Below are positions 50,273 through 56,781 of a DNA stretch of 64,000 nt, piece after piece. How positions within the stretch are numbered: position 1 is the stretch's first letter; each line of letters begins with the position of its first letter. The notes beneath the pieces are model-generated. The model did no database searches, was not told the origin of the DNA, and saw only the letters and a list, made by a program, of their open reading frames with translations. The stretch lies in NCBI RefSeq assembly GCF_054482595.1, contig NZ_CM137008.1. The stretch is one strand, 5' to 3'. The position numbers were made by a program, and so were the translations under genes.

Positions 50273-50935
50273 TTAAATCGACGTTCTGCCAAACGCTCCC
50301 TGCCAGTCCTGCTCAAACTTCGCCACAGCGGCATCTACCGCCGGATAGCTAATCATCTGTTGTGCCACATCCAGTGGCAGAGTAATTGATTCACATCCTG
50401 CCAGTAAGCAGTCCAGCGCCTGACGCGGGGTTTTGAAACTCGCTGCCAGCACTTTCGCCTGCGGCGCATGCATTTTCAATAACTGGTGTAAGTCGGTCAC
50501 AGTCTGAATGCCGCTACCGCCCTGAGCATCAATACGATTAACGTAAGGCGCAACATATTCCGCACCTGCCAGCGCCGACAGCAACCCTTGTGCCGCGCCA
50601 TATACCGCGGTTCCCAGCGTCGGAATCCCTTCCGCTTTTAACATCTTAATCGCTGCCAGCCCCTCGGCGGTCACCGGAACTTTCACCACGATATCCGCAA
50701 TAATAGAACGCAATTTACGTGCGTCATTCACCATCCCTTCAGCAGTGATAGCCATTACCTGGGCAAACAGACGCCCCTGACCGCCCATCGCTTCATGAAG
50801 TTCCGGAAGCACAACCTCCAGCGGTTTTTTACCCGCGGCGATAATGCTTGGGTTAGTGGTCACGCCCGCCAGCGGAAAAATACGTGACAGCGCCTTCACC
50901 GCAACAACGTCTGAAGTATCCAGATACAGTTCCAT
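50273..50935 (-). CDS. fsaA: Fructose-6-phosphate aldolase 1
   Basis: ORF 50273..51007; start at [13 protein letters not shown] gives 220 aa. Confidence 0.9.
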
Positions 50936-51066
50936 AACCATCCTCAAAATGTACTTTTTGTCTGAATGTAGACTATCACGGGAAAACTCTCTGAACAGTT
51001 GACGCACATCAATCTAACTTTCATTCGAAAGTATTTTAATGTTTGAACGAAACAGAGAGGCAACTA

Positions 51067-51965
51067 TGATTTTCAATATTCAGCGCTACTCGACCCATGA
51101 TGGCCCCGGTATCCGCACGGTCGTATTTCTTAAAGGCTGTTCGCTGGGCTGCCGCTGGTGTCAGAACCCGGAAAGCCGCGCCCGCACGCAGGATCTGCTG
51201 TATGACGCACGACTGTGTCTGGAAGGCTGCGAGCTGTGCGCTAAGGCAGCGCCGGAAGTGATTGAGCGCGCGCTGAATGGTTTGCTTATTCATCGGGAAA
51301 AGTTAACCCCGGAGCATCTGACGGCGTTAACCGACTGCTGCCCGACACAGGCATTAACCGTGTGTGGTGAAGTGAAAAGCGTTGAGGAGATCATGGCGAC
51401 CGTTTTGCGCGATAAACCGTTTTACGATCGCAGCGGCGGAGGCTTAACGCTTTCGGGTGGTGAACCCTTTATGCAGCCGGAAATGGCGACGGCGCTGCTG
51501 CAAGCCAGCCACGAGGCCGGCATTCATACTGCGGTAGAAACCTGTCTGCATGTGCCGTGGAAATATATCGCCCCTTCTCTGCCCTATATCGATCTGTTTC
51601 TTGCCGATTTAAAACACGTTGCCGACGCGCCGTTTAAACAGTGGACCGACGGTAACGCCGCCAGGGTGCTGGATAATCTGAAAAAACTCGCCGCAGCGGG
51701 CAAAAAAATCATTATCCGCGTGCCACTGATTCAGGGCTTTAATGCCGACGAAACCTCTGTAAAAGCCATTACCGATTTTGTCGCCGACGAGCTGCACGTT
51801 GGCGAAATCCATTTCCTGCCCTACCACACGCTGGGCATCAACAAATATCACTTACTTAATCTGCCCTATGACGCCCCGGAAAAACCGCTTGATGCGCCAG
51901 AACTGCTCGACTTTGCCCAGCAGTATGCCTGCCAGAAAGGGTTAACCGCGACCTTACGAGGATAA
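51067..51965 (+). CDS. ybiY: Glycyl-radical enzyme activating protein (PFL-activase family)
   Basis: ORF 51039..51965; start at [36 protein letters not shown] preceded by AGAGAGG; radical-SAM plus ferredoxin-like Cys clusters. Confidence 0.85.
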
Positions 51966-51970
51966 CAACC

Positions 51971-54403
51971 ATGACCACATTGAAACTGGACACGCTCAGC
52001 GACCGCATTAAAGCGCACAAAAATGCACTGGTGCATATTGTGAAACCGCCGGTTTGTACCGAGCGCGCGCAGCACTATACCGAGATGTATCAACAACATC
52101 TCGATAAGCCGATCCCTGTACGTCGCGCGCTGGCGCTGGCACATCACCTGGCGAATCGCACTATCTGGATCAAGCACGATGAGTTGATCATCGGCAACCA
52201 GGCAAGCGAAGTTCGCGCCGCGCCGATCTTCCCGGAATATACTGTCTCGTGGATCGAAAAAGAGATTGATGATCTGGCAGATCGTCCCGGTGCTGGCTTT
52301 GCGGTGAGCGAAGAGAACAAACGCGTTCTGCATGAAGTGTGCCCGTGGTGGCGCGGTCAGACCGTACAGGATCGCTGCTACGGCATGTTTACCGATGAGC
52401 AAAAAGGTCTGCTGGCGACCGGCATCATTAAAGCGGAAGGCAATATGACCTCCGGCGATGCGCACCTGGCGGTCAATTTCCCGCTGCTGCTGGAAAAAGG
52501 GCTTGATGGTCTGCGCGAGAAAGTAGCGGAACGTCGCTCGCGCATCAACCTGACGGTGCTGGAAGATTTACACGGTGAGCAATTCCTGAAAGCGATTGAT
52601 ATCGTGCTGGTGGCAGTCAGTGAACATATTGAACGTTTCGCTGCCCTGGCGCGTGAAATGGCCGCGACCGAAACCCGCGAAAGCCGTCGCGATGAACTGC
52701 TGGCGATGGCAGAAAACTGCGATCTTATCGCCCACCAGCCGCCGCAGACTTTCTGGCAGGCGCTGCAACTGTGTTACTTCATCCAGTTGATTTTGCAGAT
52801 CGAATCTAACGGTCACTCAGTATCGTTTGGTCGTATGGACCAGTATCTCTACCCGTACTATCGCCGCGACGTTGAACTCAACCAGACACTGGATCGCGAA
52901 CACGCCATCGAATTGCTGCATAGCTGCTGGCTGAAACTGCTGGAAGTGAACAAAATCCGCTCAGGCTCACACTCAAAAGCCTCTGCGGGAAGTCCGCTGT
53001 ATCAGAACGTCACCATTGGCGGGCAAAATCTGGTTGATGGTCAACCAATGGATGCGGTGAATCCACTCTCTTACGCGATCCTCGAATCCTGCGGTCGCCT
53101 GCGTTCGACTCAGCCTAACCTCAGCGTGCGTTACCATGCGGGTATGAGTAACGATTTCCTCGACGCCTGTGTGCAGGTGATCCGCTGCGGCTTCGGGATG
53201 CCGGCGTTCAACAACGATGAAATAGTCATCCCGGAATTTATTAAACTCGGTATTGAACCGCAGGATGCTTACGACTATGCAGCGATTGGTTGTATCGAAA
53301 CCGCCGTCGGTGGCAAATGGGGCTATCGCTGTACCGGCATGAGCTTTATCAACTTCGCCCGCGTGATGCTGGCGGCGCTGGAAGGCGGGCGTGATGCCAC
53401 CAGCGGCAAAGTGTTCCTGCCACAAGAAAAAGCGTTGTCGGCAGGTAACTTCAACAACTTCGATGAAGTGATGGACGCGTGGGATACGCAAATCCGTTAC
53501 TACACGCGTAAATCAATCGAAATCGAATATGTCGTCGACACCATGCTGGAAGAGAACGTGCACGATATTCTCTGCTCGGCGCTGGTGGATGACTGTATTG
53601 AGCGAACGAAAAGCATCAAGCAAGGCGGCGCGAAATATGACTGGGTTTCTGGCCTGCAGGTTGGCATTGCCAACCTCGGCAACAGCCTGGCGGCCGTGAA
53701 GAAACTGGTATTTGAACAGGGCGCGATTGGTCAGCAACAGCTTGCTGCCGCACTGGCAGATGACTTCGACGGCCTGACTCACGAGCAGCTGCGTCAGCGG
53801 CTGATTAACGGTGCGCCGAAGTACGGCAACGACGATGATACTGTCGATACGCTGCTGGCTCGCGCTTATCAGACCTATATCGACGAACTGAAACAGTACC
53901 ATAACCCACGCTACGGTCGTGGTCCGGTTGGCGGCAACTATTACGCGGGTACGTCGTCTATCTCCGCTAACGTACCGTTTGGCGCGCAGACTATGGCAAC
54001 GCCGGACGGACGTAAAGCGCATACCCCGCTGGCAGAAGGCGCAAGCCCGGCTTCCGGTACTGATCATCTTGGCCCTACTGCGGTCATTGGCTCGGTGGGT
54101 AAACTGCCTACGGCAGCGATTCTCGGCGGCGTGTTGCTCAACCAGAAACTGAATCCAGCCACACTGGAGAACGAATCTGATAAGCAGAAGCTGATGATCC
54201 TGCTGCGCACCTTCTTTGAAGTGCATAAAGGCTGGCATATTCAGTACAACATCGTTTCCCGCGAAACATTGCTGGAGGCGAAAAAACATCCGGATCAATA
54301 CCGGGATCTGGTGGTGCGTGTCGCGGGCTATTCCGCCTTCTTCACCGCCCTGTCACCGGAAGCTCAGGACGATATCATCGCCCGTACCGAACATATGCTG
54401 TAA
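51971..54403 (+). CDS. ybiW: Pyruvate formate-lyase-like glycyl radical enzyme
   Basis: 810-aa ORF with C-terminal glycyl radical motif RVAGYSA. Confidence 0.9.
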   Translation: MTTLKLDTLSDRIKAHKNALVHIVKPPVCTERAQHYTEMYQQHLDKPIPVRRALALAHHLANRTIWIKHDELIIGNQASEVRAAPIFPEYTVSWIEKEIDDLADRPGAGFAVSEENKRVLHEVCPWWRGQTVQDRCYGMFTDEQKGLLATGIIKAEGNMTSGDAHLAVNFPLLLEKGLDGLREKVAERRSRINLTVLEDLHGEQFLKAIDIVLVAVSEHIERFAALAREMAATETRESRRDELLAMAENCDLIAHQPPQTFWQALQLCYFIQLILQIESNGHSVSFGRMDQYLYPYYRRDVELNQTLDREHAIELLHSCWLKLLEVNKIRSGSHSKASAGSPLYQNVTIGGQNLVDGQPMDAVNPLSYAILESCGRLRSTQPNLSVRYHAGMSNDFLDACVQVIRCGFGMPAFNNDEIVIPEFIKLGIEPQDAYDYAAIGCIETAVGGKWGYRCTGMSFINFARVMLAALEGGRDATSGKVFLPQEKALSAGNFNNFDEVMDAWDTQIRYYTRKSIEIEYVVDTMLEENVHDILCSALVDDCIERTKSIKQGGAKYDWVSGLQVGIANLGNSLAAVKKLVFEQGAIGQQQLAAALADDFDGLTHEQLRQRLINGAPKYGNDDDTVDTLLARAYQTYIDELKQYHNPRYGRGPVGGNYYAGTSSISANVPFGAQTMATPDGRKAHTPLAEGASPASGTDHLGPTAVIGSVGKLPTAAILGGVLLNQKLNPATLENESDKQKLMILLRTFFEVHKGWHIQYNIVSRETLLEAKKHPDQYRDLVVRVAGYSAFFTALSPEAQDDIIARTEHML

Positions 54404-54548
54404 TCTTCTCAGCCCGGCGGCGTCGCCGCCGGGCTAAATCATTCACATCATCAATTTCATCCTTACTTTCATTCGAAATATAATTTGTGCTCTACGTCAC
54501 ATTGTTATTACACTGTTACGGTTTCATTTTCGAGCCAGGAGCACACCT

Positions 54549-55364
54549 ATGAGCGTAAAAGTTATCGTCACAGACATGGACGGTACTTTTCTTAACGACG
54601 CCAAAACGTACAACCAACCACGTTTTATGGCGCAATATCAGGAACTGAAAAAGCGCGGCATTGAGTTCGTTGTCGCCAGCGGTAATCAGTATTACCAGCT
54701 TATTTCGTTCTTTCCTGAGCTAAAGGATGAGATCTCTTTTGTCGCGGAAAACGGCGCACTGGTTTACGAACATGGCAAGCAGTTGTTCCACGGCGAACTG
54801 ACCCGACATGAATCGCGGATTGTGATTGGCGAGTTGCTAAAAGATAAGCAACTCAATTTTGTCGCCTGCGGTCTGCAAAGTGCATATGTCAGCGAAAACG
54901 CCCCCGAAGCATTCGTCGCACTGATGGCAAAACACTACCATCGCCTGAAACCTGTAAAAGATTATCAGGAGATTGACGACGTACTGTTCAAGTTTTCGCT
55001 CAACCTGCCGGATGAACAAATCCCGTTAGTGATCGACAAACTGCACATAGCGCTGGATGGCATTATGAAACCCGTCACCAGTGGTTTTGGCTTTATCGAC
55101 CTGATTATTCCCGGTCTACATAAAGCAAACGGTATTTCGCGGTTACTGAAACGCTGGGATCTGTCACCGCAAAATGTGGTAGCGATTGGCGACAGCGGTA
55201 ACGATGCGGAGATGCTGAAAATGGCGCGTTATTCCTTTGCGATGGGCAATGCTGCGGAAAACATTAAACAAATCGCCCGTTACGCTACCGATGATAATAA
55301 TCATGAAGGCGCGCTGAATGTGATTCAGGCTGTACTGGATAACACATCCCCTTTTAACAGCTGA
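54549..55364 (+). CDS. ybiV: HAD-family sugar phosphatase
   Basis: 271-aa ORF with DMDGTF motif; paralogous to ybjI in this window. Confidence 0.85.
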
Positions 55365-55515
55365 CCTCTCTACCGGAGCCATGCGCTCCGGTTATCCCTT
55401 CTTTTTACATCCTGTACATCACATCAAATCATTAAACTTGCATTAACTTATTTATAACTTATATTGTCACATGCAAATCAGCATAGTTTCGAATGAAAGT
55501 TAATGCGAGGTGGTT

Positions 55516-56781
55516 ATGGCTTCTACTTTTACCAGCGACACATTGCCTGCCGATCACAAAGCAGCTATCCGTCAGATGAAGCACGCGCTGCGGGCGCAGC
55601 TTGGCGACGTCCAGCAGATCTTTAATCAGCTAAGCGATGACATTGCCACGCGAGTGGCTGAAATCAACGCACTCAAAGCACAGGGCGATGCCGTCTGGCC
55701 GGTGCTGTCTTATGCCGATATCAAAGCAGGTCATGTTACTGCAGAGCAGCGCGAACAGATTAAACGTCGCGGTTGTGCGGTGATAAAAGGCCATTTCCCC
55801 CGCGAACAAGCGCTAGGCTGGGATCAGTCGATGCTGGACTATCTGGACCGCAACCGCTTTGACGAGGTCTACAAAGGCCCCGGCGATAATTTCTTCGGGA
55901 CGCTCAGCGCTTCACGTCCCGAGATTTACCCCATCTACTGGTCGCAGGCGCAAATGCAGGCTCGCCAGAGTGAAGAAATGGCGAATGCGCAGTCGTTTCT
56001 CAATCGTCTGTGGACATTTGAAAGTGATGGAAAGCAATGGTTTAACCCGGATGTGAGCGTCATCTACCCTGACCGTATCCGCCGCCGTCCGCCCGGAACG
56101 ACCTCCAAAGGTCTTGGAGCGCATACCGACTCCGGGGCACTGGAACGCTGGCTGCTTCCAGCGTATCAGCGCGTTTTCGCCAACGTCTTTAATGGCAATC
56201 TGGCGCAATATGATCCCTGGCATGCGGCACATCGTACGGAAGTTGAAGAGTACACGGTGGACAACACCACCAAATGTTCCGTGTTTCGGACATTCCAGGG
56301 CTGGACAGCGCTCTCTGATATGCTGCCTGGTCAGGGGCTGCTGCACGTCGTGCCCATTCCTGAAGCCATGGCGTACGTACTGTTACGTCCGCTGCTTGAT
56401 GATGTGCCGGAGGATGAACTGTGCGGCGTAGCGCCCGGAAGAGTATTGCCGGTATCAGAGCAATGGCATCCACTGTTAATTGAGGCGTTAACCAGCATTC
56501 CAAAACTCGAAGCCGGAGACTCCGTCTGGTGGCACTGCGACGTCATCCATTCCGTTGCCCCCGTTGAAAATCAACAGGGTTGGGGCAACGTGATGTATAT
56601 CCCTGCTGCGCCAATGTGCGAGAAAAATCGGGCTTATGCACACAAAGTCAAAATGGCGCTGGAAAAAGGCGCATCGCCGGGCGACTTCCCGCGCGAGGAC
56701 TATGAAACAAACTGGGAAGGACGCTTTACGCTTGCCGACCTCAACATTCACGGTAAGCGCGCACTGGGCATGGATGTTTGA
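55516..56781 (+). CDS. ybiU: DUF1479 family protein YbiU
   Basis: ORF 55510..56781; start at MASTFTSDT preceded by GAGGTGG. Confidence 0.8.
   Translation: MASTFTSDTLPADHKAAIRQMKHALRAQLGDVQQIFNQLSDDIATRVAEINALKAQGDAVWPVLSYADIKAGHVTAEQREQIKRRGCAVIKGHFPREQALGWDQSMLDYLDRNRFDEVYKGPGDNFFGTLSASRPEIYPIYWSQAQMQARQSEEMANAQSFLNRLWTFESDGKQWFNPDVSVIYPDRIRRRPPGTTSKGLGAHTDSGALERWLLPAYQRVFANVFNGNLAQYDPWHAAHRTEVEEYTVDNTTKCSVFRTFQGWTALSDMLPGQGLLHVVPIPEAMAYVLLRPLLDDVPEDELCGVAPGRVLPVSEQWHPLLIEALTSIPKLEAGDSVWWHCDVIHSVAPVENQQGWGNVMYIPAAPMCEKNRAYAHKVKMALEKGASPGDFPREDYETNWEGRFTLADLNIHGKRALGMDV

Follow-up and report, generated by a model that had tools for sequence, protein, structure and literature searches.

Two glycyl radical enzymes of Escherichia coli, YbiW and PflD, have been described as acting on phosphorylated sugar analogues. 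According to the account of Ma et al. (JACS 2024;146:26187) given in section 5.1 of a review (PMC12441222), YbiW cleaves 1,5-anhydroglucitol-6-phosphate, with opening of its ring, to 1-deoxy-fructose-6-phosphate, and PflD cleaves 1,5-anhydromannitol-6-phosphate, likewise to 1-deoxy-fructose-6-phosphate; the substrates enter and are phosphorylated by a phosphotransferase system, the glycyl radical is required, and E. coli, along with many gut bacteria, grows anaerobically on 1,5-anhydroglucitol. Here we examine a stretch of 64,000 nucleotides (the window; contig NZ_CM137008.1 of assembly GCF_054482595.1) that is E. coli chromosome, and within it a segment, positions 50,273 to 54,403, that is the ordinary fsaA/ybiY-ybiW cluster. 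It is very likely, in our view, that these genes encode the two initial committed steps of the anaerobic route published for the glucose analogue 1,5-anhydroglucitol (1-deoxyglucose), under a proposed control logic that combines FNR with the DeoR-type regulator YciT. The function of YbiW, its structure and its main regulator are already in print: the reaction, the binding and repression by YciT and the anaerobic activity of the promoter have all been demonstrated in the literature. The catalytic residues, the conservation of the operator and the linkage of yciT and fsa to ybiYW are observations of the present analysis.

The nature of the enzyme is best read from its active site. YbiW matches the Pfam families PFL-like (PF02901) and Gly_radical (PF01228, E = 1.7e-32); its radical glycine is G786 within the motif RVAGYSA (residues 783-789), which aligns with the glycine loop of the B12-independent glycerol dehydratase 1R8W. 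In a HMMER alignment with the same protein the cysteine loop G440-C441-I442-E443 (AIGCIE) falls upon GCVE (IGCVE) – a lone cysteine, C441, followed by E443 – and H165 (SGDAH165LAV) upon the dehydratase histidine. An adjacent pair of cysteines is a feature of PflB; in the eliminases the second residue beyond the cysteine is a glutamate, and a histidine serves as acid. Judged from these alignments, YbiW carries the predicted Cys/Glu/His set of glycyl-radical eliminases and not the Cys-Cys pair of PflB.

These residues bear directly upon the label that many database records attach to the protein, namely that of a third isoenzyme of pyruvate formate-lyase (formate C-acetyltransferase). The K-12 RefSeq record (NC_000913.3 860174-863511) names ybiW 'putative pyruvate formate lyase' and pflD 'putative formate acetyltransferase 2', a close orthologue in the PDB (6XS4) is titled 'Formate C-acetyltransferase', and the PFL-like fold is indeed held in common. 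We nonetheless find the label scarcely credible. The score of YbiW against the PflB-type model TIGR01255 is 162 bits where the cut-off is 994 (against NF007437 it is 582, with a cut-off of 1109); the GCIE loop has the single cysteine and the glutamate of the eliminases, and the cysteine pair of PflB is absent; and a different reaction has been published, which, as summarised in the review (PMC12441222), already contradicts it. The K-12 annotation lags behind the literature of 2024.

A second alternative accepts the eliminase chemistry and doubts the substrate: YbiW could be a general diol or glycerol dehydratase, for which 1,5-anhydroglucitol-6-phosphate is a side substrate and another small diol or deoxy-sugar phosphate the true one. 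Its best characterised relative, at 549 bits, is the B12-independent glycerol dehydratase, which shares the Cys/Glu/His set; structures of the protein are titled 'Probable dehydratase YbiW'; and the cluster holds no dedicated transporter. Yet YbiW, which exceeds the cut-off of the NCBIfam family model TIGR01774 (PFL2/glycerol dehydratase family; 1407 bits, cut-off 678), falls below that of every NCBIfam equivalog model, those of all characterised dehydratases included; its gene is tightly linked to that of an aldolase preferring the expected product fragment as donor; and a DeoR-type regulator is, as a matter of general knowledge, typical of sugar-phosphate sensing. Moreover, E. coli is stated in the review to grow on 1,5-anhydroglucitol through YbiW (PMC12441222). 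We regard a general dehydratase as very improbable, and take YbiW to be the published anhydroglucitol-phosphate enzyme.

The protein of the window is approximately 99% identical to that of the PDB entries 8ID7 and 8YJN (1852 bits across all 810 residues). Of some nine positions that differ none is catalytic, and three belong to one clustered SEENK-to-SAANA change that looks engineered. The partner, YbiY, has the radical S-adenosylmethionine (SAM) motif C25-x3-C29-x2-C32 together with an auxiliary cysteine-rich insert (C51/C55/C58 and C91/C92/C100), and scores 370 bits on TIGR02494 (cut-off 174). For comparison we assembled 80 related Enterobacterales loci from one scan of species-representative genomes, in which YbiW is 84-99% identical; ybiY adjoins ybiW in every one of them. 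By its motifs and its neighbour, YbiW is a glycyl radical enzyme with a dedicated radical-SAM activase encoded alongside. An earlier note, made from the letters of this DNA alone, had called YbiW a PFL-like enzyme with an RVAGYSA motif and YbiY its radical-SAM activase, and had suggested comparing active-site residues with those of characterised enzymes. The Pfam matches and G786 confirm the first description, C25/C29/C32 and the TIGR02494 score the second, and in the comparison with 1R8W the catalytic glycine and cysteine are both retained.

The aldolase is equally clear. Fsa scores 452 bits on NF009296 (cut-off 306) and 283 on TIGR00875 (cut-off 246), and K85, in VVKVPVT, is present; we take this residue to be the Schiff-base lysine of the class I aldolase fructose-6-phosphate aldolase (FSA). 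Among the 78 loci that could be assessed, 62 have fsa divergent from ybiY within 400 nt. In 17 loci the module lies outside the moeB-ybiT neighbourhood, and even there fsa, ybiY and ybiW remain together in 13.

The route that we envisage would begin with the phosphotransferase system, which would bring the analogue into the cell as 1,5-anhydroglucitol-6-phosphate. YbiY, with S-adenosylmethionine and its [4Fe-4S] cluster, would install the radical on G786 of YbiW; the radical would pass to C441, and C441 would take a hydrogen from the substrate at its C2 carbinol. If the glycyl-radical dehydratases are a guide, E443 may then act as base and deprotonate the C2 hydroxyl, the C1-O5 ether may be eliminated with H165 as acid – opening the ring – and the hydrogen may be given back to C1, leaving a 1-deoxy-2-ketose, 1-deoxy-fructose-6-phosphate. 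If the radical forms at C2 in this way, the gluco and manno epimers would yield one product. FsaA would cleave 1-deoxy-fructose-6-phosphate to glyceraldehyde-3-phosphate and hydroxyacetone, the split that both FsaA and FsaB reportedly make, and GldA is said to reduce the hydroxyacetone to 1,2-propanediol. Such a cleavage accords with FSA being known to prefer hydroxyacetone as donor, and fits too an enzyme whose physiological role was termed 'enigmatic' as late as 2020 (PMC7767278).

Evidence on control came from repeated sequence in the intergenic spaces. Three intergenic positions in the window (51017-51030, 54465-54478 and, on the minus strand, 55487-55500) carry exactly the same 14-mer, ACTTTCATTCGAAA, a count that no shuffle reached. 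It forms the core of a near-palindrome, ACTTTC-ATTC-GAAAGT. A search of 1.58 Mb of related loci, allowing up to two mismatches, returned 194 matches, 184 of them upstream of ybiY, ybiV or ybiU; by gene, the operator precedes ybiY in 76 of 80 loci, ybiV in 51 of 59 and ybiU in 56 of 57. The ybiU copy is kept in Mangrovibacter (L078) despite a different ybiU context. The operators of Cra, NagC/Mlc, KdgR, GlpR, the LacI-type, ArgR, the IclR-type regulators and others were also considered, and the palindrome fitted none.

We assign the operator to YciT because of synteny in the first place, and of the literature in the second. Of the 17 rearranged loci, 11 have a yciT-type (DeoR-type) gene inside the module, and in eight of these it stands directly downstream of ybiW. 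The NCBIfam YciT model gives this gene product 415 bits and that of the next family 154, and its sole match in E. coli is yciT. The module of Serratia, Buttiauxella and relatives is located at the yciT locus itself, in the order rnb ... fsa-ybiY-ybiW-yciT-yciH-pyrF. (The yciT orthologue was placed at about 12430-13250 in L071-L074 and L077; it was likewise placed in L055, L058 and L079 and in L066, L067 and L078, and at 4950-5699 in the E. coli locus L082. In E. coli yciT and its targets are some 0.5 Mb apart.) DeoR-type regulators typically sense sugar phosphates, and an effector of this kind may be presumed for YciT. From the literature, chromatin immunoprecipitation with exonuclease treatment (ChIP-exo) gave YciT peaks at ybiV, ybiY and fsaA, with altered expression in a delta-yciT strain (PMC8464067); and a study by reporter assay and mass spectrometry found YciT pulled down on the ybiY promoter, binding over the RNA polymerase footprint as a repressor (bioRxiv 10.1101/2025.05.13.653802). 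The operator fits a site of the DeoR-type regulator YciT, and we infer that it is the same as the published YciT motif. By occupying ACTTTCATTCGAAAGT, which separates the FNR-like box from the -10 hexamer, YciT would block the ybiYW promoter, and through the same operator it would also control fsaA, ybiV and ybiU.

At the E. coli yciT locus the sole operator-like match is CTTTCGTTTGAAAA (three mismatches; L082 2405-2418, between rnb and pdeR), which is at the level of chance, being equalled in 69 of 200 shuffles. With the operator missing there, we have no evidence that yciT regulates itself. The match coincides with the site of the fsa-ybiYW module in other genera; no FNR box accompanies it.

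The anaerobic character of the promoter is a separate matter. With TTGAT-N4-ATCAA, centred near -41.5 in class II promoters, as the FNR reference site, an FNR-like box can be recognised ahead of ybiY, upstream of the operator and separated from it by a fixed gap of 5 nt. Among 78 distinct orthologous promoters anchored on the operator, 74 have the box with two mismatches or fewer, and its four central bases are nearly without information. When TTTAAT is taken as the -10 hexamer, transcription would start near 51047, placing the centre of the box at -41.5 and the operator at -30 to -15. This geometry would be that of a class II FNR activator site, and depends upon the start at about 51047. The ybiYW promoter is known to fire only anaerobically, and an activator footprint, its factor unassigned, has been seen just upstream of the YciT site (bioRxiv 10.1101/2025.05.13.653802); the candidate FNR box probably explains that footprint. 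A class II FNR-type promoter would, we propose, make ybiYW active only without oxygen.

The simplest competing account dispenses with FNR: the switch would be relief of YciT repression alone, and TTGAC-N4-ATCAA no FNR site at all. Relief was in fact proposed as the simplest model by the reporter study, whose motif scan yielded no activator candidate (bioRxiv 10.1101/2025.05.13.653802), and our own literature search turned up no paper tying ybiY to FNR. Against this stand the activator-like footprint of that very study; the match of the box to nine of the ten consensus positions and its retention while the central bases drift; the exact 41.5 nt between it and the start that TTTAAT implies; and the lack of any such box beside the ybiV and ybiU operators. 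We judge repression alone to be unlikely, though a good deal less so than either alternative for the enzyme, and retain a probable FNR-type activator beside the repressor YciT.

Several points weigh against the pathway and its control as we have drawn them. The YbiW reaction is taken from the summary in a review, and the FsaA and GldA steps from what is reported of them and from linkage. Phosphotransferase genes are absent from the fsaA/ybiYW cluster, and in 12 loci – from Klebsiella, Raoultella, Phytobacter and some Kosakonia – the moeB context is kept and fsa is not found beside ybiY. On the side of regulation, the failure of our literature search to tie ybiY to FNR has just been noted; RegulonDB has YciT as an activator; the ybiY YciT site of Gao et al. 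lies about 100 nt upstream of that in the reporter study; and the numbering of the latter (YciT near -5, activator near -20) is some 17 nt off the start that we use (bioRxiv 10.1101/2025.05.13.653802).

The features discussed are collected in the table.

Table. Features of the fsaA/ybiYW segment and its surroundings, in window coordinates. Gene coordinates are those that RefSeq annotates in a strain of 100% identity.
Feature	Position	Strand	Remarks
fsaA (fsa)	50273-50935	-	Fructose-6-phosphate aldolase 1, 220 aa
FNR-like box TTGAC-GCAC-ATCAA	50999-51012 (centre 51005.5)		Read from sequence; 9/10 FNR consensus positions
Operator 1, ACTTTCATTCGAAAGT	51017-51032		Near-palindrome between FNR-like box and ybiY -10; some 85 nt ahead of fsaA
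Inferred -10 hexamer TTTAAT of the ybiYW promoter	51035-51040	+	Conserved column block ATTTAAT
ybiY	51066-51965	+	Glycyl-radical enzyme activase, 299 aa
ybiW	51971-54403	+	Glycyl radical enzyme, 810 aa; 1,5-anhydroglucitol-6-phosphate C-O lyase
Hairpin	54411-54435	+	11-bp perfect GC-rich stem, no U-tract; 8 nt past the ybiW stop
Operator 2, ACTTTCATTCGAAATA	54465-54480		Followed at once, with overlap, by a TATAAT hexamer; some 70 nt before ybiV
ybiV	54549-55364	+	Cof-type HAD sugar phosphatase
Operator 3	55485-55500		Operator palindrome in reverse orientation; 15 nt before the start codon of ybiU
ybiU	55516-56781	+	DUF1479/Gig2-like protein, 421 aa

Of 5426 complete E. coli genomes all but one (5425) contain the segment, several strains being identical throughout; window coordinates are those of the locus in the annotated strain plus 44272. 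It is flanked by moeA-moeB upstream and ybiT downstream, in an order that is K-12 b0820-b0827 read in reverse and with neighbours identical to those of K-12. The coordinates and gene names given in the earlier note agree with the annotation exactly, down to the stop codons – 50273 is the final base of that of fsaA on the minus strand, 54403 that of ybiW – and fsaA is, as it had stated, divergent from ybiY, the two sharing an intergenic region of 130 bp. Its statement that the substrate of YbiW was not established is outdated, given the structures 8ID7 and 8YJN and the 1,5-anhydroglucitol-6-phosphate reaction set out in the review; its hint that the aldolase takes part in an anaerobic pathway for a sugar derivative anticipated the route described there (PMC12441222). 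The co-expression it had proposed to examine is by now covered in print, YciT being reported to regulate fsaA, ybiY and ybiV (PMC8464067) and the ybiYW promoter to be anaerobic (bioRxiv 10.1101/2025.05.13.653802).

Some details of the transcription unit deserve mention. The gene ybiY ends 5 nt before ybiW. Its longest open reading frame begins at 51039, but we take the annotated start, 51066, because a GAGAGG ribosome-binding site precedes it and because 51039 falls within the inferred promoter. The hairpin beyond ybiW, folded as RNA, has an energy of -25.2 kcal/mol (z = -6.1 against shuffles); a consensus terminator scan made no call at this hairpin, which probably forms the 3' terminus of the ybiYW transcript or stabilises it. 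The consensus scan performed no better than chance (five promoter-like sites against 4.2 expected, seven terminator-like against 6.5), and its hit at 51043-51070, which overlaps the start codon of ybiY, was not adopted. In the 12 loci without an adjacent fsa (L014, L026, L028, L032, L035, L036, L038, L040, L041, L059, L068 and L069) the order moeB-ybiY-ybiW-ybiV-ybiU is kept.

Possession of a common operator places ybiV and ybiU, by prediction, in the same regulon as ybiYW and fsaA. YbiV has an N-terminal DMDGT motif. YbiU belongs to Pfam PF07350 and contains GAHTDSG, with an H-x-D (H-T-D) motif that is suggestive of the iron/2-oxoglutarate oxygenases; its PDB structures, 2DBI and 2CSG, bear no functional name, and a literature search found no function for DUF1479/YbiU. 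In Rouxiella (L066) and Mangrovibacter (L078) ybiU adjoins yciT. One speculation, reasonable though in our view improbable, is that YciT controls two branches for 1,5-anhydroglucitol-6-phosphate, a dead-end analogue of glucose: the known FNR-dependent, oxygen-sensitive branch of ybiYW and fsaA, and an oxygen-compatible branch of ybiV and ybiU for detoxification or salvage, lacking the FNR box, in which YbiV would dephosphorylate and YbiU oxidise the analogue. Oxidation by YbiU may, for example, take the form of C1 hydroxylation, leading to glucose-6-phosphate. Were this true, the YbiU/YbiV branch would be the aerobic anhydroglucitol-degrading enzyme that a clinical review calls missing.

The significance of the cluster extends beyond its biochemistry. 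It accounts for three long-standing puzzles of E. coli – YbiW, FsaA and, by extension, GldA with PflD – although this much has already been published. Gut bacteria that possess it can consume 1,5-anhydroglucitol, a clinical marker of glycaemia, and the phosphate of this compound causes neutropenia in glycogen storage disease (GSD) Ib and in G6PC3 deficiency. Our own additions are modest: an operator pinned at three promoters, the synteny of yciT with the structural genes, FNR as the likely activator, the flagging of ybiU and ybiV as co-regulated, and a new reading of a motif, 'tusp', from Salmonella.

That motif comes from the orthologous pflE promoter of Salmonella Typhimurium (Leschner et al. 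2012), a tumour-specific and hypoxia-induced promoter whose induction by hypoxia is 150-fold (PMC3326293). It shares with ybiY the TTGAC-gcac-ATCAA box, the palindrome CTTTCATTCGAAAG and the TTTAAT hexamer. Fragment 212b of that study is orthologous to 50970-51065 of the window, and its authors did not remark upon the FNR-like box or the palindrome (PMC3326293). They placed the source of specificity in a 21-bp 'tusp' motif without a known binding factor, and found that changing TTTAAT to TGTCAT (Mut2/4) abolished expression (PMC3326293). In our reading 'tusp' overlaps the -10 hexamer, the inactivating mutation is what loss of a -10 would produce, and the FNR and YciT sites would explain the behaviour of the promoter. 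A literature search on pflE/pflF and FNR gave nothing useful.

It remains to set the locus beside the systems it most resembles. The nearest is the K-12 pair YbiW/YbiY (b0823/b0824; PDB 8ID7, 8YJN), the same two genes differing only by strain-level substitutions. PflD and PflC of E. coli (PDB 8YJO is PflD) are a paralogous radical enzyme and activase divergent to an FSA paralogue, and yield the same product according to the review (PMC12441222). In K-12 this second cluster has gldA-fsaB-ptsA divergent from frwCB-pflDC-frwD; with pflDC beside fsaB and ybiYW beside fsaA, both radical enzymes therefore adjoin an FSA paralogue. The two clusters differ in that of PflD having its own phosphotransferase genes (frwCBD, ptsA) and gldA, whereas the ybi cluster has ybiV and ybiU; and a YciT operator was not found in the pflD-frw-fsaB-gldA cluster. 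Further afield, the B12-independent glycerol dehydratase of Clostridium butyricum (1R8W) is like YbiW in its fold, its RVAGYSA loop, its G-C-x-E loop and its histidine. With the glycyl-radical 1,2-eliminases – propanediol dehydratase, hydroxyproline dehydratase and choline trimethylamine-lyase – YbiW likely has its chemistry in common, a radical being generated beside the leaving group and elimination following. The difference lies in what leaves: these eliminases lose a hydroxyl or an amine, whereas in YbiW the leaving group would be the ring ether oxygen, so that the reaction opens the ring of a phosphorylated sugar analogue.

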